A program made the position numbers and the translations under genes. From positions 1 through 64,000 of IMG/VR virus record IMGVR_UViG_3300048583_000274: DNA of 64,000 bases. One strand, written 5' to 3'. Source of the DNA: a virus. How positions within the stretch are numbered: position 1 is the stretch's first letter; each line of letters begins with the position of its first letter. Under the pieces are notes generated by a model, which saw only the letters and a list, made by a program, of their open reading frames with translations, did not search any database and was not told the DNA's origin. Below, piece after piece: positions 1,474 through 39,997 of this stretch.

Positions 1474-2216
1474 TTAATACCTACTCCTACAAATACTTGA
1501 GAAGTAAATCCAGAACCAATACCATAAGATAGAGTAGGCCCTACACCAAATCTTTTAGGAGTAGGAGGAGTTATTTGAAAAGTTCGCATACTTTCTACTT
1601 CACTATAAGGATTGTTTAACCTGACTTCTGCAAATGATTTTCTTTTACCTAGTCCTAAAAATCCTGTTTTTTCTTCTCCTAAAACAAAAGTTAAATCTTC
1701 TTTATATTTTACTGAGATTCCTATGCTGTCTTTATTGGCTACTACAGTTCCCCATACCCAATCATTAAAATTATAGTCAGCTTTGTAAGTTGGATTAGCA
1801 TCCGGGCAATTCTTGTCTACATAAATAGTGTCAGTTTTGAATGTATCAGCAACTTTTCCTTCAGTAGTTATGACAGTCACAGAACTTCCAGGAGTAAGTT
1901 TTTTTTTGTATCTCTTTACTTCTTCTTTAAGTCTAATAATTTCTGCTTCTGAGGTCTCTAATTGAGTAAAAGCTCCTATGTTATCAGCTTGAAGTATAGC
2001 TATTTTAGCATTACTAAGGCTATCTTTGTCTTTCCAAGTAATTAATTTAGCATTTGCAGCTTCATATAATGAAGTAGTCTGAGCCAATTGAGCTTGAGAG
2101 TCACAAGCTTTAAATGTTGCAAGAATGGCAATAACTGCAAGTATTACAAGAATAACATTTTTAATTTTACCTCTTAATTCTTGTAAGTGTTTTTTATCTT
2201 CTTCTGAAATGTTCAT
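1452..2216 (-). CDS. membrane-anchored protein, function unknown
   Basis: N-terminal TM helix (VILVILAVIAILATF), then a coiled-coil-like segment. The C-terminal tail is rich in Gly and aromatic residues, beta-like, and ends in F. Confidence 0.5.
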   Translation of the reverse strand: MNISEEDKKHLQELRGKIKNVILVILAVIAILATFKACDSQAQLAQTTSLYEAANAKLITWKDKDSLSNAKIAILQADNIGAFTQLETSEAEIIRLKEEVKRYKKKLTPGSSVTVITTEGKVADTFKTDTIYVDKNCPDANPTYKADYNFNDWVWGTVVANKDSIGISVKYKEDLTFVLGEEKTGFLGLGKRKSFAEVRLNNPYSEVESMRTFQITPPTPKRFGVGPTLSYGIGSGFTSQVFVGVGINWNIIRF

Positions 2217-2226
2217 AGGTAATAGG

Positions 2227-2253
2227 ATAAAAATGGGAGATTACTCTCCCATT
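2227..2253 (-). terminator. Rho-independent terminator
   Basis: Stem aatgggag (2232-2239) / ctcccatt (2246-2253). On the minus strand it is followed by UUUUUAUCC. It lies between the stop of the MazG gene and the next start. Confidence 0.5.
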
Positions 2254-2262
2254 GATTAATAA

Positions 2263-2853
2263 TTATTTTTCAAGTTCTTTTCTTTCAGCATCTAGATTTC
2301 TATTTAGAGCTGCTTCTGTAGTGAATTTTTCAGGATATCTTACTTGAAGCTTAGCAATGTTATTTGTCAAAGCTTGCCAGAAATCAATCTCTAAAAGTTC
2401 ACAAATAGCTACACAAATTCCAGCTAATGCTAGAAAGTTTCCTCTTTTAGCATCTGTTACTTGTTTGTTAGCTAAAATGAAAGCAAGAGTAGCAGTTTCT
2501 AAATCTGTCTCTCCTTCTACAATAGTTTGTTTGATTTTAAGAGTAGCACTTTCTCTTTGAGCTTCTATGGCTTTTAAGACTTGTGGGTCTCCTAAACCAG
2601 ATCCATCTACACTTCCAATAGTTTCAGCTCCTGCTATGTACCACATAGTATCAGCCAACTCTTCAGCTAAATGTACCTTATCTATTTCTTTGTTGTAAGC
2701 AACTTTCTTTTTAAGAATATCTACAACTTCTCCAAGAAATTCTCCGGTAGCTCCGGCTTCCATGTGAAGGATATTTTTTTGCAAACTACCTAAATCAGGT
2801 AATGTTCTTGCAGCTAAAAGTTGGTACTCCTGTAATGTTTCAATTTTTTTCAT
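2263..2853 (-). CDS. MazG-like nucleoside triphosphate pyrophosphohydrolase
   Basis: All-alpha MazG signature: EAGATGEFLGEVVDILKK ... LAEELADTMWYIAG (ExxE...EExxD acidic metal-binding pattern). Confidence 0.7.
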   Translation of the reverse strand: MKKIETLQEYQLLAARTLPDLGSLQKNILHMEAGATGEFLGEVVDILKKKVAYNKEIDKVHLAEELADTMWYIAGAETIGSVDGSGLGDPQVLKAIEAQRESATLKIKQTIVEGETDLETATLAFILANKQVTDAKRGNFLALAGICVAICELLEIDFWQALTNNIAKLQVRYPEKFTTEAALNRNLDAERKELEK

Positions 2854-3061
2854 TGTGTTTTTTGTTAAAATATCTTCTTAAAAAATAACCTCTCAAAAAA
2901 GAAGCTACAAAAAAGATAAAAGTTAAAGTTAAGTTCTGCTTAAAAGTAACAGGAATACCCATTATTGGATAAACTATAATTTGAATAAGAAGACTCACTA
3001 AAAGGCCTACTACTACATTAACAATTGACTCTATAGTAGATTGTTTCTTAGTTTGCCCCAT
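2840..3061 (-). CDS. small membrane protein
   Basis: 73 aa with two hydrophobic helices. Its ATG overlaps the TAA of the ligase-remnant frame (TAATG). Confidence 0.5.
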   Translation of the reverse strand: MGQTKKQSTIESIVNVVVGLLVSLLIQIIVYPIMGIPVTFKQNLTLTFIFFVASFLRGYFLRRYFNKKHNEKN

Positions 3062-3093
3062 TACTTGTCAAATCTAAAACCAACACACACAGA
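3061..3093 (-). pseudogene. remnant of a DNA ligase 3' end (SVCVGFRFDK-stop)
   Basis: The minus-strand frame reads tct gtg tgt gtt ggt ttt aga ttt gac aag taa. It duplicates the ligase C-terminus PVCVGFRID-stop (3906-3935), with 14/15 nt identical over gtN tgt gtt ggt ttt followed by synonymous divergence (aga vs cgc for Arg). Confidence 0.55.
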
Positions 3094-3094
3094 A

Positions 3095-3847
3095 TCATTC
3101 TTTCCACCAATTAAGTACTTCTTTTGAGTACTGTCTAAATTCTTCATATTTTTCAATGTATTTAATTAAAGTTTGACATTTTTCTTTTTTTTCTATTAAA
3201 AAAGGCTCTACACTTTTTAAAAAAGGTAGTATAGATGCTGTAGTATTTTGCCAAGAATAGGTTTGTACATGAGATTGATAGTCATATACTTTACAGGTGT
3301 GGGTTTGGCTTCCTTCAAACCTATTCATATAGTCAATTAAAGGTTTGTATCTTTGTTGTAATCCTATTGAGTATTTGTTGTAAAAAGAAACCCCTTTACC
3401 TGCATTAAACATACTTAACCAACCATCTCCATCAATAATACCTGCTAGATATTGAAAAGAAAGTTCTCCATTAATAGAGTGTTCAAAATTTGTTTTAGCT
3501 ATTAGATACTTTCTATAACAAATCTCTTTATCTTCTCCTTCAATTAAACCTTTAATAGTTTCAAGTTGTAATCTTTTTTCATTTAAAAAAGGGAGCATAT
3601 CAGGAATAAAAGAACTTTCTCTTAACTGCTTACCATTAAGTGTAGCATAGTAAGCTGTTTGTCTATTTATCCCTCTTTCAGAAATTTTAATTTCAAGATT
3701 ATATTGAGAGGCAAATAATTTAACTATTTTAAAACTACACATATAAAGCCTACATTCATAAGTATAAGAATAGTTATTGCCACTCATTGTTTTTCTTATT
3801 CTGATGTATCCTTCAGAGTCAAAAATTCCTGCTAAATATTGTATCAT
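3095..3847 (-). CDS. LAGLIDADG homing endonuclease (double-motif)
   Basis: Two LAGLIDADG motifs: YLAGIFDSEGYI near the N-terminus and YLAGIIDGDGWL at about residue 133. It is free-standing between the ligase gene and the ligase remnant. Confidence 0.85.
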   Translation of the reverse strand: MIQYLAGIFDSEGYIRIRKTMSGNNYSYTYECRLYMCSFKIVKLFASQYNLEIKISERGINRQTAYYATLNGKQLRESSFIPDMLPFLNEKRLQLETIKGLIEGEDKEICYRKYLIAKTNFEHSINGELSFQYLAGIIDGDGWLSMFNAGKGVSFYNKYSIGLQQRYKPLIDYMNRFEGSQTHTCKVYDYQSHVQTYSWQNTTASILPFLKSVEPFLIEKKEKCQTLIKYIEKYEEFRQYSKEVLNWWKE

Positions 3848-26569: not shown

Positions 26570-28477
26570 CTAATGACAATCAGCATAATTACTACCAAAA
26601 TCAATACTTATACCTAAAGGAATATTTAGTTTAAGTGTTTGGTTAGTTAATTGAATAGCTAAATTAAGCTTATTTTTAATAGCCTCTATATCAGATTTAA
26701 GAAAACTAAAGCCAATTTCATCATGGTATTGAAGATTAATTTTAATACCTTGTTTTCTTACATTAGAAATATGCATATCAAAGCAGTAAACTCCTGTTCC
26801 TTGATTAAGAGTTGAAAATTTATCTTTAGCTTGTCTAAGAGAATACCAAAACTTACTTACAGGGTTATACAACCACATTTGCCCTCTGACTACCTTTGAT
26901 ACAGTATCATTGGCAATTTGCTTTACAGCTTTATTTCTTTCCCAATAAATTGTATGCAGTAGAGTAGATTCTTGTAGAGACATACCTGTAGTTAAGGCTA
27001 TCTTAGGTGGCCCAGCACCATAGATTCCACTAAAATTCACAACTTTAGCTTTACTCCTAATCTTCTTAAGTCTAGCATGTTCTGCCTTTTCTTCAGCAGA
27101 CAAGGATTCAGATTTATCCAATTTCTTAAACAAATCCGCTTCTTCTTTAGACATCATGTTGGCTAAAATACCAATATCAATGTGAGGATCAAATCCCGGA
27201 ACTCTCATAGCTTGTACATACTCAGGGTCATAAAACATCATATAATGTTGTTTAGTTGTATCCTCTAAAGAAGACATATCAGAACCACAAAATAAATGAT
27301 TTTCATCAGGGGCTATAATGGCACCTCTAATTTCTTTTCCATAAGGTTTATCTACTCCGGGAAGATTAGCAATAGGCTTTTTATGTCTAAATCTAAGGGT
27401 ATTAGTAAATCCTGCTATTTCAGCTTTCATTCTACCTTTTTCATCAGAACACTCTAAGAAGCCTGTAAATACTCCTATTCTATGTTGAAGCATAAATAGT
27501 CCCTTTAATTCATTAAGAACAGGGTATGTATCAGCAAGAACAGTAATATTTCTACATAGCTTTTTATCTTTATCTTGAAGTTGAGGTATAGCTTTCACTT
27601 CTCCTGCTACATTCTTTTTGTAATCAAAAATAGTAGGTTGCCATCCTAAAGTAAATAGCCAAGCTTTTATTTGAGGAATTGAAGTAGGATTAGGCTCTTC
27701 TTTACTTTTGATAATACTAACTTCTCCTTCAAAATCTGCCTCTAGATCATTATCAGCCAACAGATTCAACCAACTTTCTCCGGCTTTAGTTAAGTCTCCT
27801 TTGACAGTAAACATTTTAGCCGGCTTTCTTTTAACAGTGTATTTGAGTATTGCCGGCATAGCTCCTTTAAGGATACTTTTTCTAAGCTCAACCTGTTCTT
27901 CTAAAGAAGTTAGGACAGTTTGACAATGCTCTCTATTGATAGTTAAAGGATTAGCTTCTTGTTCATAAGCACAATCTAGCTTCCAAGTAAGATAGGCCAT
28001 GACAGTATAATAATTTTCATAGCCATAAATATCCCTAAGATAAGCTACAAAATCTCCAAAAATAATGCTATTGATGATAACATCTTCTTCACATCTATGA
28101 AGATATTCTTGTAAGGTAAGATTTTGCCAATCTTTAATCTCAGGTTTAGCTACTCCTACAGTTACTCCCCATGATTCTAAACCATGTTCTGCTCTTTCAG
28201 GGTATAAGTACCAAGAGAGGGCTAAAGTATCTATTACAGGGCCTGTATGAATGTATCCTGTTAAAGCATAAATAGCAGGTAAATCAAATCTTTTGATATT
28301 ATGCCCTACTAAATAATCTGTCTGTCCTCTTAAAAATACTACTAAATCTTCTAGTGTAGTAATATGAATTTTGTGCATGAGCATATTATCTTGATAGATA
28401 TGAGCTACAAGACAATGTAATTTGGTCAAGGTGTCTAATAACCCATCTGTTTCTATATCAAAAATAGTATATCTCAT
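26570..28477 (-). CDS. family A DNA polymerase with 3'-5' exonuclease domain
   Basis: Exo I FDIETDGL; motif A SDMSSLED; motif B RSKAKVVNFSGIYGAG; motif C LQYHDEIGF. Confidence 0.9.
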   Translation of the reverse strand: MRYTIFDIETDGLLDTLTKLHCLVAHIYQDNMLMHKIHITTLEDLVVFLRGQTDYLVGHNIKRFDLPAIYALTGYIHTGPVIDTLALSWYLYPERAEHGLESWGVTVGVAKPEIKDWQNLTLQEYLHRCEEDVIINSIIFGDFVAYLRDIYGYENYYTVMAYLTWKLDCAYEQEANPLTINREHCQTVLTSLEEQVELRKSILKGAMPAILKYTVKRKPAKMFTVKGDLTKAGESWLNLLADNDLEADFEGEVSIIKSKEEPNPTSIPQIKAWLFTLGWQPTIFDYKKNVAGEVKAIPQLQDKDKKLCRNITVLADTYPVLNELKGLFMLQHRIGVFTGFLECSDEKGRMKAEIAGFTNTLRFRHKKPIANLPGVDKPYGKEIRGAIIAPDENHLFCGSDMSSLEDTTKQHYMMFYDPEYVQAMRVPGFDPHIDIGILANMMSKEEADLFKKLDKSESLSAEEKAEHARLKKIRSKAKVVNFSGIYGAGPPKIALTTGMSLQESTLLHTIYWERNKAVKQIANDTVSKVVRGQMWLYNPVSKFWYSLRQAKDKFSTLNQGTGVYCFDMHISNVRKQGIKINLQYHDEIGFSFLKSDIEAIKNKLNLAIQLTNQTLKLNIPLGISIDFGSNYADCH

Positions 28478-31214: not shown

Positions 31215-31415
31215 TTAAAGCTTTGATTTGAATTTTTGATTTACCTTTTTGTTTAAAAAAACTATAGAGGTTTTGATAAGACTGCTACGAGTTAACTTAC
31301 TTACTATAGCCCAAAATAAGGGAGCTTTACAGGGCTTTGCTGTCGGGCTCTAAAGTATTAAAATACTTTTTTGGCACTGCAGAGGTTACCTCCTAAGTAT
31401 TGCTTATTTTTGTAG

Positions 31416-31883
31416 TGGAGTAGCGGAGAGTTGAACTCCGGTCCAAACTACTTCCTTCTTAAGAATTTATACAGCTTTTTGTTTCCAAAGTAATTTTAGC
31501 TCTGATGGAAACACTGAAGAGCACTCTTGTATCTTTTAATTCTGCTAGAATAGTGCAAGAATGTGTCTAGTAAACTAGTCACTGAGGGTCAACTGTGTTA
31601 CGAGTTAACTTCCACCACCATAGTTTTTTACCCTAAGCTATGGAAAAAGGGAGTATTAATCATGCTTATCTAGGACTAAGCTGCCTCAGCTAACTCTACT
31701 TCTTGTGAAGCAGAAACTAAATCATCTTCTCCATTAAGGATATTATGAACTACAGTCATATTAGCTTGTACTTGGGAATTCTCTAAAATGTTGTCATTTA
31801 TTAAGTTCACCTTAGTTTTTAAGGGTTATCTCTCCCTGCTGATTCTTAAAAATTCACATAACCTGTCAAAACCTGTCTACCCC
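31416..31883 (-). ncRNA. ssrA: tmRNA (transfer-messenger RNA)
   Basis: The minus-strand 5' end is GGGGUAGACAGGUUUUGACAGG. The 3' end is UUUGGAC-CGGAG-UUCAACU-CUCCG-CUACUCC-A. The acceptor stem GGGGUAG/CUACUCC has a G3:U70 wobble and the T-loop is canonical. P2 pairing joins nt 32-42 with 31456-31466. The internal tag frame ends VELAEAA-UAG (stop at 31676-31678). CCA is not encoded. Confidence 0.85.
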
Positions 31884-32708: not shown

Positions 32709-32868
32709 AGCGATTCTTTTTAATGCCTATAGGGTTAATTGATAAACATTGATTAGGAAATCCTAACTTATATCTCACTTGCATAATCAGCCTTTTAGCA
32801 CATATATTTTTTAGAGAATTGCTTGATGCTTCAAGAGTTCCGATTTTTATTCTTTTTCTTTGAGCCAT
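32698..32868 (-). CDS. small basic hypothetical protein
   Basis: 56-aa ORF (MAQRKRIKIGTLEASSNSLKN...), below the track cutoff. It overlaps the next ORF by 11 nt and starts ~65 nt downstream of motif copy 1. Confidence 0.35.
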   Translation of the reverse strand: MAQRKRIKIGTLEASSNSLKNICAKRLIMQVRYKLGFPNQCLSINPIGIKKNRYDN

Positions 32869-32933
32869 AATCTTTAAATTGGATTTGTTAAACTTACAAT
32901 AAAAACTGTAGTAAATGGAATTACTACTTCAAA

Positions 32934-32951
32934 TTAGTGAGGGTGTTGCGA
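32934..32951 (-). promoter_or_regulatory. conserved promoter-like motif, copy 1
   Basis: TTAGTGAGGGTGTTGCGA is identical over 18 nt to 39219-39236. The minus strand reads TCGCAACACCCTCACTAATTTGAAGTAGTAA. Confidence 0.55.
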
Positions 32952-33225
32952 TGAGGTTCTATAATAAAAAGAAGTAACTGATGTCCCTATAACAAAGGGG
33001 TTGTAGATTTTAACTAAAACTTTAACAGTGAAATATGTTAAAAAGTATTGACTATCTCAAAAAAAACAACTAACTTTGACGCAAAGAGTTTGCTCTTAAT
33101 CTATTGCATAGATAAAAAACAAAAGCCTCAGACAGTGTGTCTGCCGTAACTAAGTGTAGAGTTTTCTTTTTTTGGTACTTTTTTTCTTTGTAGGTACTTG
33201 AGTGATTGATTATAAACAACAGATA

Positions 33226-33250
33226 GGGAAGTCCACTCACAGGGCTTCCC
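33226..33250. terminator. hairpin, candidate bidirectional terminator
   Basis: gggaag(t)cc...gg(g)cttccc, followed by tttcttattgtt on plus. On minus it lies ~70 nt past the stop of ORF 33317..33739. Confidence 0.4.
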
Positions 33251-33316
33251 TTTCTTATTGTTCCTTCCGAGTTAATTAAGCCACTCTTGGAGCTAATTTT
33301 TAAAATGAATAAATGT

Positions 33317-33739
33317 TTATGATTCTGTTGGTTGTATTGGTTGGTAGTGTCTGTTAAAATCTCTTATTACAGAGTCTCTTTCAGATCTACTGAGTTTGGA
33401 CTTCTTTTCTAGAATAAGTTTATACTCATCTATTAGGCTTGAATAATTAGGAGTAATTACACTCTGTTGTTTTTTAGTAACAACAGAGCTTAGTCCTCCA
33501 AACATCATGGCCATAGCCATTAATCTTCCTATAGGTTTACTCACAGTAGGCCCGGTATTTCTTGGTCTTTCCTGATAGGTAACACCATTAAGTTCAAAAG
33601 TATTTTTCATAATCTTGTTTTTTAAGTTGGATAAAAAAATCTGCTTTTTACAGAAGCTGATAAGTATAACTGTCATAATTCCTACTGGAATATAAACTAT
33701 GAATGAAACATTGATTGTTAGCACCCTCTTTTTTAGCAC
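33317..33739 (-). CDS. hypothetical protein
   Basis: The probable start is MKNTFELNG (ATG at 33610, ~97 aa). The annotated N-terminal extension is hydrophobic read-through of intergenic sequence. Confidence 0.45.
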   Translation of the reverse strand: MLKKRVLTINVSFIVYIPVGIMTVILISFCKKQIFLSNLKNKIMKNTFELNGVTYQERPRNTGPTVSKPIGRLMAMAMMFGGLSSVVTKKQQSVITPNYSSLIDEYKLILEKKSKLSRSERDSVIRDFNRHYQPIQPTES

Positions 33740-34019
33740 ACCTAGGTATTAGAAGACCTTAGACAATAAAAAAGTAGGGTCGGATAGTCGATTAGAGTTA
33801 GCTACCAATTCTGACTACTTTGCTGAGAACTCATTTGTGTTTTGTAAAGTATTCATTTACATTTTAGTTCGGTCTTAAAATATCTCTATTCTAAATAACT
33901 AGCTTACTTTCCTTTCTCAAGGGAACAACACATTCAGACTCACATCTGACATTCTTATTTATACTTGAGTCAATGTTTTTCAAGTCTTACTCAAAAGAGT
34001 AAAGTTTTTATTTGTTTCT

Positions 34020-34547
34020 TTGAGAAACATTTATTATATTTGTTACATGAACAAAGATGTACTAATAGGATACATTAATCAAGGATTAAGTACCTGGAAA
34101 ATTGCTGAAGAGTTAAATACTACTCAACCTAACATTAGATATTGGTTAAAGAAATATAATCTTCAAACTTTAAGAAAAACTAATGATGACAATAATTTAA
34201 AATTATGTCCTAAATGTAAAACATCTAGACCTAAAGATGATTTTTATAAATCAATTAAATCTAGTTCTTACTGCAAGTCTTGTATTATTATTTCTAATAA
34301 AGAGAGACAAAGAAATACTAAACAACTAGCTGTAGAATATAAAGGCGGTAAATGTTCTAAATGTGGATACAATAAATGTATAGCAGTATTAGAGTTTCAT
34401 CATGTTGATCCAAACACTAAAGATAAAGATTACTTTAACTCAAGAGGTGGACTAACAGATAATCTTAAAACTGAGTTAGACAAGTGTGTCCTTCTGTGTG
34501 CAAATTGCCATAGAGAAGAACATCACTCATCAACTACTGACATTTAA
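34020..34547 (+). CDS. HNH homing endonuclease with N-terminal HTH
   Basis: The ATG is at 34047. HTH: LSTWKIAEELNTTQPNIRYWLKKYNL. Zinc-binding pairs: CPKC...CKSC. HNH core: KCSKCGY...LEFHHVDPNTKD...LLCANCHREEHH. It is the only plus-strand gene in the accessory region. Confidence 0.8.
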   Translation: MRNIYYICYMNKDVLIGYINQGLSTWKIAEELNTTQPNIRYWLKKYNLQTLRKTNDDNNLKLCPKCKTSRPKDDFYKSIKSSSYCKSCIIISNKERQRNTKQLAVEYKGGKCSKCGYNKCIAVLEFHHVDPNTKDKDYFNSRGGLTDNLKTELDKCVLLCANCHREEHHSSTTDI

Positions 34548-34833
34548 CTAGAATTACTCCGTTTAATACTTGGGTGAACCTACGTCACCAATTAAGAACA
34601 GTGTACCTATGACCAAAGAAACTTAGTAGGTATTTAGTCGCAACTTCATTATCTTTATTGCCACTTTGTAATGTTCAAATATAAATACCCTGTTAATTCA
34701 GGATTAGTATCTTTATGTGAATTATGCTGACTACTTACCTCGTTTCACTATTGTTAAGTCTAGCAGATTAATATCCTTTACGAGATTCTCTTTTTTATAA
34801 TTCACAAAGGTTCAATGTTTAGCCTTTTTGTTT

Positions 34834-35187
34834 TTACTTGTCTAAATTAGCAGATTGCTCTTCTAAGAAAGCCAAAGTTTTTTTGTGATTGACCAAATTT
34901 TCTTCAGCTTCAATCAAATTGTTTTGAGCAGCTACAAGGTTAGAAACATAAGCATTTCTGTCTTCAATTTGCTTCCCATTGTTTAATCTTGAAAGTTTTA
35001 GATTTTCTTTGGCACTTTCTACACGGTCTTCTAAGGAAATAGTATCTCCTGTCATTGAAGCAATACTTGTTTTCAAAGCTGAATCAGCTTGTCTTAAAAT
35101 CTTTTGCCCTGTGGCTTCTGCATCATCCCCTTTAAGGATTGCAACTACTTCTTTTACGAAACTACATGCTTTTTTTGCTGTGTCCAT
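34834..35187 (-). CDS. hypothetical coiled-coil protein
   Basis: 117-aa ORF, helical and heptad-like, abutting the upstream ORF. Confidence 0.5.
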   Translation of the reverse strand: MDTAKKACSFVKEVVAILKGDDAEATGQKILRQADSALKTSIASMTGDTISLEDRVESAKENLKLSRLNNGKQIEDRNAYVSNLVAAQNNLIEAEENLVNHKKTLAFLEEQSANLDK

Positions 35188-35189
35188 TT

Positions 35190-36359
35190 TTAAAGGTATT
35201 TAGAGTTATTGATAATTTTTAATTTAACCGGAGAAACTTCTACGGGAGTAAAAGTAAGGCTTTTATGATTAGATTTACCTAGTCTAGGAATAGCAGGAAC
35301 AGGAACACTAGTATTTTTTTTAAGAGATATTTCTCCGGACTCTGTTTTAAATGCTTCTTGTACAGTAACAGGATGCTCTGAAGTTTTAAGAGGAACCCAT
35401 CCTTCATGCATTAATTGCCAGTGAGAACTTGTAATATTATCTATAGTGTAAGTCCAATTTTTCTCAAGTTCATAAGTATTTTTACTTCTTAATCTTAAGA
35501 TTTTAACACAAGCTCCTTTTTTTAAAAGAGTTGATTGAGGATTATCTTTTAAAGCTATTAAGTATCTTCCCTCAAGGTTATTTCCATACTTATCAAGTTC
35601 AGTTAGTTTTTTTAAGGCTTCTTCTGATAGGATTTCCCAATCATCAGAATTAAAAGTATTTGGAAAATAATATCCTCCTTTAGTTAATTTACAAGAATTT
35701 GCATCTTGAGATAAAATTCTAACAATCTCTCCTTTTCTCACTGCTGATCCTTGAGGATTAGTTACTAAAGCTTTGAGATAAACTCCTACTAAATCAGGAA
35801 AAGAAGGATTAAATCCTACAGGCATTAGTTCATATTTATCTTTCTTCCTAGGAGATAAAGCTGCAGAACAAAGATAGTGGGGATCACTAGGAAATTCAAC
35901 TACTCCTCTATCTAGAATAAGACCATATTCTCCTGCTTTAACTGCTCCTCCATGAGGATAATCTACCAAAGCTTTAAGGTATCTCCCTTTGTATTTAGAA
36001 AGATCAGAAAAAGTGTTTGTAGAACATTCAGGATATGCTGAGGTTAAGTCAGGATGATAGCTAGGCAAATACAAATATAGTTCAGAAATAGACACTTCTC
36101 TAAAAGTATCCCATCTTTGACAATCTGTTCCTGTAGTTCCTATATATTCTCTTTTTTCCCATTTTTCTTTTATCATTTCATTAAAAGAGAATAGACCACC
36201 TGCAGAATCAATACCTTTACCTTGAAAACCTGCAAATTTTGCAGCTTTAATAGAATGCCATAAACTACTTACATACCACTTACCTATTATAAAATCTTCT
36301 TTTTTCATAATTAATTGTTTTAAAAACACACAATCCATCAAGATTGGGATAAACGTCAA
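35190..36359 (-). CDS. hypothetical protein with three internal repeats
   Basis: The probable start is MKKEDF (ATG at 36308). Repeats: GRYLKALVDYPHGGAVKAGEYGLILD, GVYLKALVTNPQGSAVRKGEIVRILS and GRYLIALKDNPQSTLLKKGACVKILR. Confidence 0.55.
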   Translation of the reverse strand: MTFIPILMDCVFLKQLIMKKEDFIIGKWYVSSLWHSIKAAKFAGFQGKGIDSAGGLFSFNEMIKEKWEKREYIGTTGTDCQRWDTFREVSISELYLYLPSYHPDLTSAYPECSTNTFSDLSKYKGRYLKALVDYPHGGAVKAGEYGLILDRGVVEFPSDPHYLCSAALSPRKKDKYELMPVGFNPSFPDLVGVYLKALVTNPQGSAVRKGEIVRILSQDANSCKLTKGGYYFPNTFNSDDWEILSEEALKKLTELDKYGNNLEGRYLIALKDNPQSTLLKKGACVKILRLRSKNTYELEKNWTYTIDNITSSHWQLMHEGWVPLKTSEHPVTVQEAFKTESGEISLKKNTSVPVPAIPRLGKSNHKSLTFTPVEVSPVKLKIINNSKYL

Positions 36360-36567
36360 CAGTTTTCATAAGTAGACTTACTATTTCCATTAAATAGGAA
36401 ATACCCTCATACAAATTACCTAATTTCCTAGTCTATCATACTCAACAAACATAACACTTCTTGATAGTATTTACAATACACTAAAATGAATCCTTGATAC
36501 TTGGTTCTCCCTTTAGTTTCGAGTATCCTATATTGTATTGTTTGTTTTTCTATTGTGTGTTTAATTT

Positions 36568-36771
36568 TTACTGATGAATAATATGTTTTATAGAGCTAGG
36601 ATATAATTCTAGAGTTGAATCTACCATGGGTCTTTTTATTAGAACACTTCCAAAAGAAGTTTGTTCAAATTTACAAGAATACACTGTTGTCTTTGTCTCA
36701 GAAGGTTGATTGAATTTTGGTTCAGAGGCAACAGTGTATTTAATGTTTTCTGTATGTACACAAAGTATCAT
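36568..36771 (-). CDS. hypothetical protein
   Basis: 67-aa ORF, 2 nt from the upstream lipoprotein gene. Confidence 0.4.
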   Translation of the reverse strand: MILCVHTENIKYTVASEPKFNQPSETKTTVYSCKFEQTSFGSVLIKRPMVDSTLELYPSSIKHIIHQ

Positions 36772-36773
36772 AG

Positions 36774-37112
36774 CTATTGTTTATAAAACATACCATAGTT
36801 AAGGTCTGTATCTGTCTGCACATTTATCACATCAGCTTGAGTAGTTTTACTTATTTTGTAGACTATTCCATTATGAGGAACATAAATAGAAGTTTCATCA
36901 ATGTCATAATCTGTGGCACTAAATAGCTGATATTCTATGTAGAGAGTAACTGTGCCATCATAATCAAATGTGACCCAATTATAGTCTGCATACAAAGAAA
37001 TGTAATTTCCCGGATTAAACTCTACATTGTTAGAGTTATTAGTTTTCTGTTCATCCTCTGCTGAGCAAGAGAATAATAAAGGGAGTAATAAGAGTAAAAG
37101 TAATTTTTTCAT
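36774..37112 (-). CDS. putative lipoprotein
   Basis: Signal peptide plus lipobox: MKKLLLLLLLPLLFSC. Confidence 0.6.
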   Translation of the reverse strand: MKKLLLLLLLPLLFSCSAEDEQKTNNSNNVEFNPGNYISLYADYNWVTFDYDGTVTLYIEYQLFSATDYDIDETSIYVPHNGIVYKISKTTQADVINVQTDTDLNYGMFYKQ

Positions 37113-37354
37113 TTTTTAAAGTTGTTTTTAGGTTTGTCAAAGAATTTGTTTTTTGGAGTATCTATAATCTTTGTTTCAGGGAGCTGTACAGTTCTCATCT
37201 CAAAGATAATTGGTTCAGGTTTAAATTGTGAATTCACAATATTTTTAGCTTCTAGGTTATTTACAACAACAACAGCTTGATCTATATTGTTATGGATTGC
37301 TTTAGCAACTGTTGAACCTAGGTCAATACTTCCTATTATGATTATATGTTTCAT
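37109..37354 (-). CDS. hypothetical protein
   Basis: 81-aa ORF overlapping the lipoprotein start by 4 nt. Confidence 0.45.
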   Translation of the reverse strand: MKHIIIIGSIDLGSTVAKAIHNNIDQAVVVVNNLEAKNIVNSQFKPEPIIFEMRTVQLPETKIIDTPKNKFFDKPKNNFKK

Positions 37355-37689
37355 AATGTCAGTTTTATTGATTAGTTAAAAATAAACTTCTAATAGCTGT
37401 AGTTTCTTCCACTCTTTACTAGGGCTGTGTAGACCTATATTAGAAGATTAAATGAGTGTCTATCTCAAGATTTATTAAGTTGAAGCATCTCACTTCTTTA
37501 CACTACTACTTGCTAGGAGCTACCTGCTTCATAAGTGTGGCTGTTCATAAACTAGGCTTAAGTAGTATTTTAAATAAACTCTACAAGGTTGCACCTTATT
37601 AACTAAATCAACAATATTGCTAAAAAGCTTCATCTTATAAAGATATATATTGTTCCAAGTAATTATCCTGTAATTGGATAGAGTTTATA

Positions 37690-38073
37690 TTATTTTAAAA
37701 TATGAGTTTTAAGCCAATTAAGGCCTGATGGATTCCAATCATTATCTTTTCTGATTAGAAGCTTATTAGCTTTAGGAAAATAATCTACAATACCAAATTT
37801 CTCAGTATTAATAGTTACTTTTCCTTGTCCTGCATTATAATCTAAAGATATGACATTTGAGCTATTCTCAAGCTCCTCATACCATTTACCAAAGTTATGT
37901 AGTCTTTGCTCTCTGAAAACCTTTTTATTGGCCCCCATGTAAGCTAAGTCATTGTCTTTGGAATTAGCCTCTTGTTTAAGAGCTAATACTTGATCTGTTT
38001 CACAACTAGTGCAAATACCTGTTAATTTGTTAGCAATGTAAATATTGCATTTAGGACAAATATTATGTTCCAT
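37690..38073 (-). CDS. hypothetical protein with N-terminal zinc ribbon
   Basis: CPKC...CTSC within the first 25 residues. 127 aa. Confidence 0.5.
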   Translation of the reverse strand: MEHNICPKCNIYIANKLTGICTSCETDQVLALKQEANSKDNDLAYMGANKKVFREQRLHNFGKWYEELENSSNVISLDYNAGQGKVTINTEKFGIVDYFPKANKLLIRKDNDWNPSGLNWLKTHILK

Positions 38074-38161
38074 GATTAAAATTGATTAATAATATGATAA
38101 AGAGAGTTATTTAGATTGCTCTTGAGTTCCCACCCTAACTCTCTTTATCAAAATTAAAGTC

Positions 38162-38665
38162 CTATTTAGATGCAGCCTTTCTCCCTGCCAAAAAACCTCT
38201 GTTATGTCCATCTTGGTAAGTGGATTGGTTAATTTTAGGTAAAGGAGCTATTGGAGCAATAGGACAAATAGCCAAATTACCTTTGATGTCTTTCCAACCT
38301 GCACAATAACCATCTTCCCATCCCTGAGAATAAGAGTTATTGATTACAGGAGAGTTATTTAAAGATACTGGTAAAATGGTAGAAGTTGATGTAGATGTTG
38401 TTTGTAGATACTTTTTGGAATAGTTTCCTTTGATATTTTTATATACAATAAACATCTTACCTTTTTCTGAAATGTAAACAGGATATTTGATTGTTTTGTA
38501 AATAGCAAAGTCTGAGGTCTTAGTGGCTTTGCCTATTAATTGGGCCTCTGTCTTTGGAGCATCAAGGTTATAGGTTTTTTGACTATAACTTACTGTAATA
38601 CACAATAAAAGGAGAGCTAGAATCAATATTCTAGTGAATACAAATGTTTTAAAAGCTGGTTTCAT
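38162..38665 (-). CDS. putative secreted protein
   Basis: N-terminal hydrophobic signal-like segment FVFTRILILALLLLCITVS, plus a TSTSTST linker. Confidence 0.5.
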   Translation of the reverse strand: MKPAFKTFVFTRILILALLLLCITVSYSQKTYNLDAPKTEAQLIGKATKTSDFAIYKTIKYPVYISEKGKMFIVYKNIKGNYSKKYLQTTSTSTSTILPVSLNNSPVINNSYSQGWEDGYCAGWKDIKGNLAICPIAPIAPLPKINQSTYQDGHNRGFLAGRKAASK

Positions 38666-38682
38666 AATGAATGAATTAAGAG

Positions 38683-38877
38683 TTATTTTTTATCTTTTGG
38701 TACTTTGACACCTATGTAAATACAGATTAATACATTGACTATAGAAGCTATTGCTGCTATTGGCCAATTAGGAAAAAAGTCTTTACTTCCATGAAATGTA
38801 CCTATAATCATAATGATTATAAAGAGAGTGCTTGAGGCTACTAGCCAAGCTTCCCAAAGGGTTTGATTTATTTTCAT
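38683..38877 (-). CDS. small membrane protein
   Basis: 64 aa with two TM helices. Confidence 0.5.
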   Translation of the reverse strand: MKINQTLWEAWLVASSTLFIIIMIIGTFHGSKDFFPNWPIAAIASIVNVLICIYIGVKVPKDKK

Positions 38878-39218
38878 TGGTTATATTATTAGAGTAAGAA
38901 AATGCTATTTAATAGCTTGAGATGCTCCCGGTGTTAAAAAAGGATATCATGGCCAAATGAAGAGATTTGGGAGCATCTGTGGGCTATTATAGTAGTCTAA
39001 TTGAGTATTTAAGTTCATTGGGACTTAGTTGCAACAATTACCAAATATGCTTATTTACTTAAAAGGCTATTATAGTATATGTGTGGTATTTAGTATTTTT
39101 TGGATATTGATGAAAATGGTGGTGTTTGACTTAGCACACACTCAACATTCACACTATCAACAAGTTAAGCCAACTTATTTAATAAATTTGTTTAACCTAA
39201 AGATATAAATACTATAAC

Positions 39219-39236
39219 TTAGTGAGGGTGTTGCGA
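39219..39236 (-). promoter_or_regulatory. conserved promoter-like motif, copy 2
   Basis: TTAGTGAGGGTGTTGCGA. The minus strand reads TCGCAACACCCTCACTAAGTTATAGTATTTA. Confidence 0.55.
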
Positions 39237-39273
39237 AAAGGTATCATAGATAAAAATAAGGAGAACCATGAGC

Positions 39274-39363
39274 TTATAGCCCATAGTCCTCAAGCAATTC
39301 ATTAGCTGTTTCTAGATCACATAAGATTGCATCTTGATATTGATCACAAAGTATATCACACAT
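39274..39363 (-). CDS. very small hypothetical ORF
   Basis: 29-aa ORF (MCDILCDQYQDAILCDLETANELLEDYGL) starting ~18 nt downstream of motif copy 3. The coding status is uncertain. Confidence 0.25.
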   Translation of the reverse strand: MCDILCDQYQDAILCDLETANELLEDYGL

Positions 39364-39380
39364 AGTTTAAAAGGTTAGAA

Positions 39381-39409
39381 GATTAATACTCTAACTAAGT
39401 GAGGGTGTA
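39381..39409 (-). promoter_or_regulatory. conserved promoter-like motif, copy 3
   Basis: GATTAATACTCTAACTAAGTGAGGGTGTA matches copy 4 at 27 of 29 positions. Confidence 0.55.
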
Positions 39410-39433
39410 TGAAGAGATGGGTTATTTATAATA

Positions 39434-39468
39434 TGCAGTTACTATCCCATATTATAGGGACAGCAACT
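39434..39468 (-). terminator. hairpin, candidate terminator
   Basis: gcagtt...aactgc outer stem with an inner tatccc/gggaca stem. It lies 10 nt past the stop of ORF 39478..39750. The tail is A/U-rich rather than a pure U-tract. Confidence 0.35.
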
Positions 39469-39477
39469 GCGGTATTA

Positions 39478-39750
39478 TTACAGTACTACATCAGGAGCTT
39501 GGCTGTATAGAACTATGGTCTTAGCTGTGTACAGTCCTTTAGGCCCTGTTTTCTCAGCTACAGAGATACCCAATGTGGTTGGGTTCTTAGTTTTAACAGC
39601 CTCTAATGTATCCTTGTGGATAAGTATTGCAGTTCGGGTATTATTGTCCCAATCTTTATACCACTCTGTTTTTTCATTTGTTTCAGTAACAACTTGATTA
39701 AGATTGATAGTTTCAACTCCTAATGTTTTTTTGATTTCTGCTAAGTTCAT
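39478..39750 (-). CDS. hypothetical protein
   Basis: 90-aa ORF whose start is 19 nt downstream of motif copy 4. Confidence 0.55.
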   Translation of the reverse strand: MNLAEIKKTLGVETINLNQVVTETNEKTEWYKDWDNNTRTAILIHKDTLEAVKTKNPTTLGISVAEKTGPKGLYTAKTIVLYSQAPDVVL

Positions 39751-39768
39751 AATGTTTATAAATTAAAT

Positions 39769-39797
39769 GATTAATACTCTAAATCAGTGAGGGTGTA
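39769..39797 (-). promoter_or_regulatory. conserved promoter-like motif, copy 4
   Basis: GATTAATACTCTAAATCAGTGAGGGTGTA. The minus strand reads TACACCCTCACTGATTTAGAGTATTAATC. Confidence 0.55.
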
Positions 39798-39870
39798 GTG
39801 ATATGTTATACATCCTGCAGGATTACCTTTGTTCCCAAAATCAAGGGGAGGGGTATTGTAATCCTAATAA

Positions 39871-39905
39871 TAAGTGGGGGTGTTGTCGCTAAGCACCCTC
39901 ACACT
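39871..39905. promoter_or_regulatory. inverted pair of motif cores at the divergent switch region
   Basis: TAAGTGGGGGTGTTG (a minus-oriented variant) is followed 8 nt later by CACCCTCACACT (plus-oriented). The pair lies between the leftward and rightward modules. Confidence 0.45.
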
Positions 39906-39989
39906 CTAAAAAATATCCAAAAAATTTATTTTGAACATGACCAAAAAATTTTTAGTAAAAAATTTTAGACCTATGTTAAATATTCTTCT

Positions 39990-39997
39990 TAACTTTG
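39990..39997 (+). promoter_or_regulatory. candidate Bacteroidota-type -7 box (TAnnTTTG)
   Basis: TAACTTTG lies 28 nt upstream of the first ATG (40025) of the rightward module. No clear -33 TTTG partner was seen. Confidence 0.3.

Follow-up and report, generated by a model that had tools for sequence, protein, structure and literature searches.

The most abundant viruses of the human gut are found among the crAss-like phages. A described system close to the one studied here is that of Cellulophaga phage phi14:2, in which the whole arm of the genome that diverges from the structural arm constitutes the early class, with rifampicin-resistant transcription that has been attributed to the virion-packaged polymerase gp66, and in which the host RNA polymerase reads the structural arm from promoters with host-like blocks (10.1101/2020.03.07.982082). 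Packaging of a gp66-type polymerase is known only for this phage, the one member of the group studied so far; the purified enzyme was reported to transcribe denatured phi14:2 DNA, the early transcripts were found to have no common upstream motif, and no promoter for gp66 was defined (10.1101/2020.03.07.982082). We have analysed a stretch of 64,000 nucleotides (nt) from the IMG/VR virus record IMGVR_UViG_3300048583_000274 (positions 1 to 64,000, hereafter the window), in which a motif of approximately 37 nt recurs five times on the minus strand. This motif is a real, clade-wide, strand-specific element located at the starts of early transcription units. To judge from its context and conservation it very probably represents a class of promoters, and on balance we consider it probable that these are early promoters read by the virion polymerase of the crAss type. 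No earlier description of the motif, of transcription in the related phage FpV4, or of early promoters in crAss-like phages was found in the literature, our coverage of which was incomplete.

By its proteins the window is that of a crAss-like phage akin to the Flavobacterium psychrophilum phages FpV4 and Fpv3. In a PHROG scan of the large open reading frames (ORFs), the large terminase, the portal and the major head protein encoded on the plus strand fall into crAss-type families; the major head protein shares 82.7% identity with its FpV4/Fpv3 counterpart, with a weaker likeness to those of Bacteroides crAss-like phages and of phi14:2, and gp29 of Fpv3 is a Crassvirus muzzle protein. A megablast of the region from 30 to 42 kb against GenBank phages gave no match at the DNA level, and relatives were therefore sought through proteins. 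The window is organized in two divergent arms with their origin at ~39.9 kb. The minus arm, with genes from 39750 down to 1, begins with small ORFs, among which no Pfam or PHROG family was matched, and continues with an ORF-poor stretch that contains a transfer-messenger RNA (tmRNA) gene and then with the replication genes; the plus arm carries the structural genes from 40019 onwards. Fpv3 and phi14:2 have the same layout. Because the layouts correspond, the copies of the motif can be placed at the head of the arm that matches the early, virion polymerase-dependent arm of phi14:2. A previous interpretation of this DNA, made from the letters and their predicted ORFs only (the sequence-only reading), had drawn attention to the motif and assigned it to an accessory region; in this crAss-like phage, however, the region is where the early arm begins.

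Five exact occurrences of the 9-mer CACCCTCAC are present in the 64 kb, as compared to 0.11 expected from dinucleotide-preserving shuffles, none of 100 of which reached five. Taken by itself, a 12-mer in which 2 mismatches are tolerated lacks significance (5 sites, 3.9 expected), and in an initial collection scan with the loose pattern ACCCTCACTNANTTNNAG chance matches predominated. A 37-nt position matrix was derived from 61 unique instances, most of them from relatives and 4 from the window. Applied to the window, this matrix identifies exactly five sites, with scores between 25.6 and 42.6 bits, all on the minus strand and all non-coding; apart from these, no position of the window scores 8 bits or higher, and the best score in 50 shuffles was 20.8 bits. 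When the copies of the window are aligned with those of the relatives, the conserved element is seen to extend for ~37 nt (-12 to +24, counted from the A of ACCCTCAC), with the consensus CCYYnnCtCAAAACCCTCACTnATTnn(G/T)AGtATTAAT. The positions outside the 8-mer that served to collect the instances still account for ~16 bits, so that the conservation of the flanks of the core does not depend on the way in which the sites were selected.

All copies of the window are in the same orientation, four of them clustered at the head of the arm. The first, adjoining the divergence point (39857-39893, matrix score 25.6), has the variant core ACCCCCAC followed by TTAGGATTACA. The next (ACACCCTCACTGATTTAGAGTATTAAT, 39770-39806, score 35.0) precedes by 44 nt, counted from the A of ACCCTCAC to the ATG at 39750, the first early ORF, which encodes 90 amino acids beginning with MNLAEIKK (39478-39750, minus strand; no Pfam or PHROG match). 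The third (ACACCCTCACTTAGTTAGAGTATTAAT, 39382-39418, score 29.5) lies 43 nt upstream of the ATG at 39363 of an ORF of 29 amino acids (39274-39363, minus strand). The fourth (CGCAACACCCTCACTAAGTTATAGTATTTAT, 39205-39241, score 41.2) is followed by a leader of 340 nt free of ORFs, with 352 nt to the ATG, and then by an operon that runs from 38877 to ~33070. The remaining copy, hereafter the far copy (CCTCATCGCAACACCCTCACTAATTTGAAGTAGTAAT, 32920-32956, score 42.6), is found 6.3 kb downstream of the cluster, 76 nt from the ATG at 32868, and heads the ORF-poor segment with the tmRNA gene. The sequence-only reading had recognized all five copies and read them correctly, together with their distances to the ORF starts, the 18 identical nt (TCGCAACACCCTCACTAA) shared by the far copy and the copy at 39205-39241, and the agreement at 27 of 29 positions, reproduced here by alignment, between the copies at 39382-39418 and 39770-39806; its sites stand, while some of the ranges that it quoted cover only part of the ~37 nt. 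Between the far copy and that at 39205-39241 the similarity extends over ~51 nt at 75% identity; the repeat unit in the window is limited to ~37-51 nt, with no terminal inverted repeats and no longer units found.

The distribution of the motif in relatives was studied in 80 loci anchored on the terminase gene (terminases 39-87% identical) plus Fpv3, with a threshold for matrix matches of at least 15 bits. All 123 matches (123/123) lie on the strand that does not carry the terminase gene, at least ~3.7 kb upstream of this gene and beyond the divergence point; the typical number of copies is 3-7 per related genome. A further 13 matches were obtained from loci anchored on an early-arm gene, all of them co-directional with that gene, and there are none in 178 kb around the virion polymerase genes of relatives. 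An ORF of 236 amino acids yielded no loci when used as a single-protein anchor, and the two-sequence alignment of that ORF yielded only Fpv3-like contigs. In the complete genome of Fpv3 the motif has the variant form TCAAAACCCTCACTTATT and occurs only in the first ~5 kb of the early arm, at positions 450, 333, 74 and 88382 (a tandem duplicate), 87865 and 83767 of the minus strand of NC_031904. A repeat of ~105 nt, which holds one copy of the motif with its leader, is found at either end of the record of Fpv3 (10-127 and 88309-88418); in a circular genome it would represent a promoter unit duplicated in tandem, and otherwise a short terminal redundancy.

The sites are set in non-coding DNA. The stop-to-stop frame spanning a motif site has a median length of 40 amino acids, against 389 at random control positions, and frames of 100 amino acids or more span 7% of the sites against 90% of the controls. 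A terminator-like hairpin with a T-run is present within 88 nt upstream of 31 of 97 unique sites, as compared to 67 of 492 controls (p = 4e-5), the stem ending in most cases 20-30 nt before the core; in the window, one such hairpin (39261-39291, minus strand) closes the unit of the 29-amino acid ORF directly upstream of the copy at 39205-39241. Ten orthologous far copies (the window and 9 relatives) align as a near-identical island in otherwise diverged DNA, and these islands are directly preceded by a T-rich tract or by a terminator hairpin. On the downstream side, the family of the 90-amino acid ORF recurs behind the motif copies of relatives, with a distance from core to ATG that clusters at 40-48 nt; a small ORF starting with ATGCAAGACATGAT (MQDMIND) is likewise found behind a motif copy, ~41-43 nt from the A of the core. 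The motif is thus non-coding, co-oriented with the genes downstream of it, placed at the starts of units at fixed short distances from ORFs, often right after a terminator-like hairpin, and conserved across the clade as an island against diverged flanks, which bears out the promoter-like behaviour ascribed to it by the sequence-only reading. Members of the 90-amino acid family (MxNLAEIK...) are present up to several times per genome, each directly behind a copy of the motif; a protein identical to that of the window is on record on a contig of 94,664 nt, probably the one to which the window belongs, and is labelled 'ribosomal protein L11' in one source, a label that looks doubtful.

Three positional subtypes of the motif recur among relatives. 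The subtype nearest to the divergence point, represented in the window by 39857-39893, carries ACCCCCAC...TAGGATTACA and then a C-run in most of 21 relatives examined, all of which have this variant or a form close to it at the corresponding position; the copy that had been regarded as a weaker one is not decayed, but is a distinct and conserved variant that always occupies this position. Copies of the typical subtype end with AGTATTAAT, and the far subtype, which corresponds to 32920-32956, has CCTCCTCTCAAAACCCTCACTAATTTGTAGCA in most genomes. There are also differences that extend over whole lineages: position -1 is a C in every copy of the window and of one relative (L129), and an A in most other lineages, while two relatives (L170 and L188) have CCCCCAC in all their copies. 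It follows from these lineage-wide variants that TCACTnA is the invariant part, and that the upstream bases change together within a genome. Concerted variants of this kind would be expected if the sites co-evolve with a reader encoded in the same genome; they are suggestive rather than decisive, because the hosts may also differ between lineages. In a lineage that is farther removed, with a terminase 50% identical (L198, 1880-2736, minus strand), four copies of a diverged motif, AATTCTTCCTTCACTTAnnCTTG, are present at the equivalent position; this L198-type variant (AATTCTTCCTTCAC) suggests a wider family of lineage-specific early motifs with a common TCACTnA.

How does this element compare with known classes of promoters? 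The Bacteroidota sigma-A arrangement (-33 TTTG and -7 TAnnTTTG, ~19-21 nt apart) does not describe it, as had already been noticed from the sequence: there is no TTG at the required distance, and the motif has TnATTnn rather than TAnnTTTG, with a near miss, TAATTTG, in the far copies. Boxes of the host type occur elsewhere, namely ahead of the plus arm and within further intergenic gaps on both arms, and not at the motif copies. The box that heads the plus (structural) arm is TAACTTTG (39990-39997, plus strand); the same box, TTAACTTTG, is present in those relatives whose upstream stretch extends to it, and is similar to the TAnnTTTG block in the middle promoters of phi14:2. The latter, which we read from four published positions as TTG-N6-TCA-N11-TAnnTTTG, are not enriched in the window as a tripartite pattern (3 matches with 1 mismatch, 1.1 expected). 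The middle/late promoters of phi14:2 and of the beta-crassvirinae are, like the motif, conserved intergenic promoter motifs of crAss-like phages, but they have a different sequence, belong to the structural arm, and resemble host sigma-A promoters. With the early transcription of phi14:2 the window phage shares the layout, a homologous early arm with a tmRNA-like gene, and a homologous virion polymerase; the difference is that the early transcripts of phi14:2 lack a common motif, whereas the FpV4-like clade has a strong one of 37 nt. A lone CCCCCCTCACTTATG is present in the divergent intergenic region of the phi14:2 record (97922, minus strand), pointing to the structural arm; by a rough estimate, one such 7-mer per genome is close to what is expected by chance.

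The early promoters of coliphage N4 also form a small phage-specific cluster at the head of the early region, and are read by the virion-injected polymerase of that phage; for the motif, too, a reader that is delivered by the virion and acts independently of the host RNA polymerase is presumed. Here, the cluster at the head of the early arm occurs in a phage group with a gp66-like polymerase (Fpv3 and contig Ga0326734_1000002). The N4 enzyme is a T7-like single-subunit polymerase, while the candidate reader in the present case is of the two-barrel gp66 type. The N4 promoters are DNA hairpins with a stem of 5-7 bp and a loop of 3 nt. A hairpin promoter of the N4 type was considered for the motif and rejected: on both strands, four of the five copies fold at 0 to -2.5 kcal/mol, with z-scores of -0.2 to +1.2, and only the first copy (39857-39893) forms a weak DNA hairpin with a neighbouring 9-mer. 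This 9-mer, a sixth exact CACCCTCAC, stands isolated on the plus strand (39894-39902) and matches the core but not the matrix; together with the first copy it makes up an inverted repeat, albeit an imperfect one, that gives a modest DNA hairpin (z = -2.1), and it overlaps the minus-strand element GAGTGTGA (39899-39906). At this position of the relatives GTGTGA is conserved and the 9-mer is not. Pairing of the 3' part of the first copy with downstream sequence, by which this part would belong to the transcript, is clear in the window and in a few genomes, but not clade-wide; the duplex energies are better than those of shuffled sequences in some genomes only (mean z = -0.76), and RNAalifold returned no consensus structure for the region of the first copy.

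An obvious candidate for the reader, not considered in the sequence-only reading, is the giant two-barrel virion polymerase of crAss-like phages. Residues ~1893-3121 of Fpv3 gp32 align with phi14:2 gp66 up to the catalytic DFDID, which is DYDID in the Fpv3 version, and a profile of this region has as its sole match PDB 6VR4, the structure of gp66. A protein search with the polymerase segment of Fpv3 produced 4 matches, and a contig of 95,346 nt bears both the motif (locus L126) and the polymerase (locus L209). Other enzymes or factors that might be expected were not encountered: the large proteins of Fpv3, including gp29, gp32 (4287 amino acids) and gp33, gave no Pfam match to a T7-like RNA polymerase or to a sigma domain, and neither did the early ORFs of the window with Pfam and PHROG; a T7-like polymerase is likewise missing from the RefSeq annotation of Fpv3 and from PHROG scans of the 20 longer ORFs of the window, for which its absence had been correctly noted. 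The resemblance to a T3 promoter, previously taken as a possible clue to the enzyme, is thus unaccompanied by such an enzyme, whether among the large proteins of Fpv3 or the early ORFs of the window, and the search for a sigma factor that had been recommended was negative for the same two sets. Since relatives that bear the motif also have a gp66-type polymerase, the virion polymerase is in our view the likeliest reader.

These observations can be combined in a model of early transcription. The five copies would be phage-specific early promoters, each of which starts a unit, often right after the terminator of the previous one; the plus arm would start from the host-type TAnnTTTG box, and the minus arm from the cluster of motif copies. 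In each promoter the recognition part would be CAA(A/C)ACCCTCAC, with upstream bases that differ between lineages, and the A/T-rich stretch TnATTnn is the predicted melting region; initiation is predicted to occur at or close to the conserved AG at +16/+17 from the A of ACCCTCAC, which in the window corresponds to 39865/39864, 39778/39777, 39390/39389, 39213/39212 and 32928/32927. The predictions of melting and initiation are based on the analogy with the contiguous promoters of phage polymerases, and would imply leaders of ~24-30 nt for genes located 40-48 nt downstream. The reader would be the two-barrel polymerase of the gp66 type, carried in the virion and delivered with the DNA, so that early transcription would be independent of the host RNA polymerase, as in phi14:2. 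That the motif acts as a promoter, which enzyme reads it and where transcripts begin are inferred from conservation, strandedness, terminator context and the polymerase gene of the relatives. With somewhat more reserve, it can be proposed that the motif is the first sequence-defined promoter for a two-barrel virion polymerase, modular in the style of T7, convergent with the promoters of the unrelated single-subunit polymerases to the extent of 11 nt shared with T3, and co-evolving with its polymerase by lineage. The modules, in this tentative scheme, would be the lineage-specific upstream bases, TCACTnA, the A/T-rich melting block, and the AG start.

Several facts weigh against recognition of the motif by the virion polymerase. 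Not only do the early transcripts of phi14:2 lack a common motif, but our own search of the phi14:2 early arm found no repeated motif; as gp66 activity was in addition reported on denatured DNA, a sequence-specific promoter for this type of enzyme is without precedent. In many copies the core is followed after 10-11 nt by TATTAAT, which can be read as the -10-like element of a sigma-dependent enzyme; this heptamer is not conserved in the copies of Fpv3, where only CAAAACCCTCACTnATTnnnAG is common. The copies are few in each genome (5-6) and all lie near the head of the arm, and ~30 kb of replication genes would require read-through or other promoters. Finally, the polymerase gene of the window phage lies outside the 64 kb, and we infer its presence from the relatives, in which it is known.

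One alternative, which we regard as rather unlikely, is that the host RNA polymerase is redirected to the motif by a phage-encoded or virion-delivered factor, either an alternative sigma or an appropriation of the MotA/AsiA kind, with the ACCCTCAC box replacing the -33 element and TATTAAT acting as a -10-like element. The model for such an arrangement is found in the middle promoters of T4, which consist of a MotA box plus a -10 element and work by sigma appropriation: in both cases a box stands in place of the normal upstream element, ~10-12 nt upstream of an A/T hexamer (with a spacer of 10-11 nt in the motif). TATTAAT is frequent in many lineages, and since the early transcripts of phi14:2 are without a shared motif, the element may belong to a system other than gp66. 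However, the motif heads the very first genes and not a middle class, and genes that are expressed first cannot need a phage-expressed factor unless this is packaged; the hexamer is not universally conserved, Fpv3 being a case in point; the -33 TTTG / -7 TAnnTTTG signals of Bacteroidota, which the motif does not resemble, are used elsewhere in the same genome; and no match to a sigma factor, MotA or AsiA was obtained among the early ORFs (Pfam, PHROG) or the large Fpv3 proteins. A function other than that of a promoter, as an operator for a repressor or for shut-off, or as an element of the RNA leader such as a processing site or a translational operator, is less likely still. A spacing to the start codon fixed at 40-48 nt would suit a leader element as well, GGAG or GAG is present in many copies, and the 3' part of the motif could be transcribed. 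Against this stands the fact that the 5' edge of the motif adjoins terminator-like hairpins with T-runs, so that a new start is required at this very point, and there is no other conserved element to provide it; moreover, the first copy is at the very head of the arm, with no upstream transcript in which it could act, no conserved secondary structure was found, and the C-rich 5' half is conserved as sequence and not as structure.

It is very improbable that the copies are boundaries of modules or remnants of small mobile elements, maintained by recombination rather than by function. The early regions of phages are mosaic, a homing-type HNH gene is located within the region, and two copies do share the ~51 nt described above; on the other hand, similarity is confined to ~37-51 nt without terminal inverted repeats or longer units, the flanks are unrelated, all 123 matches have the same orientation, and their position is kept across genomes whose terminases are 50-75% identical, which argues against the mobile-element end that had been named as a possible refutation of the promoter hypothesis. 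Hardly credible at all, being largely refuted by gene content, is a true promoter of the T3/T7 type served by a single-subunit T7-like polymerase encoded elsewhere, even though the likeness that inspired this idea is real. Promoters of T7, T3 and SP6 have a constant core with varying upstream bases, and the motif has the same features, with a TCACTnA core common across lineages and upstream bases that vary; it is also, like the members of the T3/T7 group, a contiguous element of ~20-35 nt in which a recognition block is combined with an A/T-rich one and a start rich in purines, and has a conserved CACTnA preceded by lineage-specific bases. Comparison with the T3 consensus ATTAACCCTCACTAAAGGGAGA (PMC4283147) confirms that the core ACCCTCACTAA coincides with positions -12 to -2, at 11 of 11 positions in the far copy and the copy at 39205-39241, and at 10 of 11 in those at 39382-39418 and 39770-39806. 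The correspondence ends there: the T3 parts from -17 to -13 and from +1 to +6 (GGGAGA) are not matched, the bases after CACTAA are TTTGGAGTA as opposed to AGGGAGA, and the distance from core to AG is 4 nt longer than that from the T3 core to +1. No T7-like polymerase was detected in any of the three sets mentioned before (the large Fpv3 proteins, the RefSeq annotation of Fpv3 and the 20 longer ORFs of the window).

If the motif is indeed read by the virion polymerase, there are consequences beyond this one phage. Infection by crAss-like phages starts with a polymerase carried in the particle, and the choice of start sites by this enzyme becomes a question that can be tested; phage-specific early promoters are a known kind of element, of which none has so far been defined for an enzyme of the gp66 type. 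The same motif is present in cultivable pairs of phage and host (F. psychrophilum with FpV4/Fpv3), and offers a template for in vitro transcription, for structures of promoter complexes and for the mapping of 5' ends. For annotation, it provides a practical rule to recognize the earliest genes of the clade, which are candidates for roles in host takeover and anti-defence. If the specificity of the enzymes follows the lineage variants of the motif, orthogonal pairs of polymerase and promoter might become possible for Bacteroidota.

The tmRNA gene of the window (31413-31883, minus strand) was identified as Rfam RF00023, with 66.6 bits against a gathering score of 47, and was missed by ARAGORN. 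It follows the far copy at a distance of ~1 kb, on the same strand, and belongs to the early arm rather than to the motif. Matches to RF00023 are also found in Fpv3 (L002, 38006-38420, minus strand; 58.2 bits) and in phi14:2 (L201, 4031-4502, plus strand), the latter with 46 bits, just below the same gathering score of 47, and an E-value of 7e-16. In phi14:2 the match falls within the 'g005-g006 junction' long non-coding RNA, which was reported to be highly transcribed and of unknown function (10.1101/2020.03.07.982082). The tag frame of the window tmRNA (31676-31810, minus strand) appears to comprise ~38 codons (...DNILENSQVQANMTVVHNILNGEDDLVSASQEVELAEAA*), as compared to the usual ~10 residues; its tRNA-like domain has the G3:U pair, and CCA is not encoded.

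Other features were noticed near the motif copies. The leader that follows the copy at 39205-39241 (38878-39204, minus strand) contains a 10-bp inverted repeat, CAGATGCTCCC (38979-38969) and GGGAGCATCT (38929-38920), with its arms 39 nt apart, which could be part of a small RNA or of a leader structure. In the divergent region, positions 39899-39970 and the same region of relatives have conserved A(n)T(n) tracts, with units of the AAAAATTTTTT type repeated two or three times, and the GAGTGTGA element is conserved ~18-25 nt upstream of the first copy of the motif; around it, the window has a 9-bp imperfect inverted repeat, GTGAGGGTG-N11-CACCCCCAC. Possible roles for these elements are a divergent site recognized by the same reader, a bend in the DNA, and a signal for replication origin or packaging.

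Farther along the early arm, an ORF for an HNH-type endonuclease (34020-34547, plus strand) is inserted in reversed orientation, with a promoter-like match of the host type, TTG...TATATTTG (34012-34042), directly upstream. The DNA polymerase (26570-28477, minus strand) is only 22% identical to gp64 of Fpv3, even though capsid and terminase are 72-83% identical, and for this reason could not be used as an anchor for loci; a swap of the gene between close relatives is a possible cause of this divergence. At the opposite end of the minus arm, in positions 1-48 of the window, the hairpin AAAGTGAGGC TTTG GCTTCACTTT stands between an A-run and a T-run, an arrangement that resembles a bidirectional terminator and would be expected at the point of convergence of the two arms.

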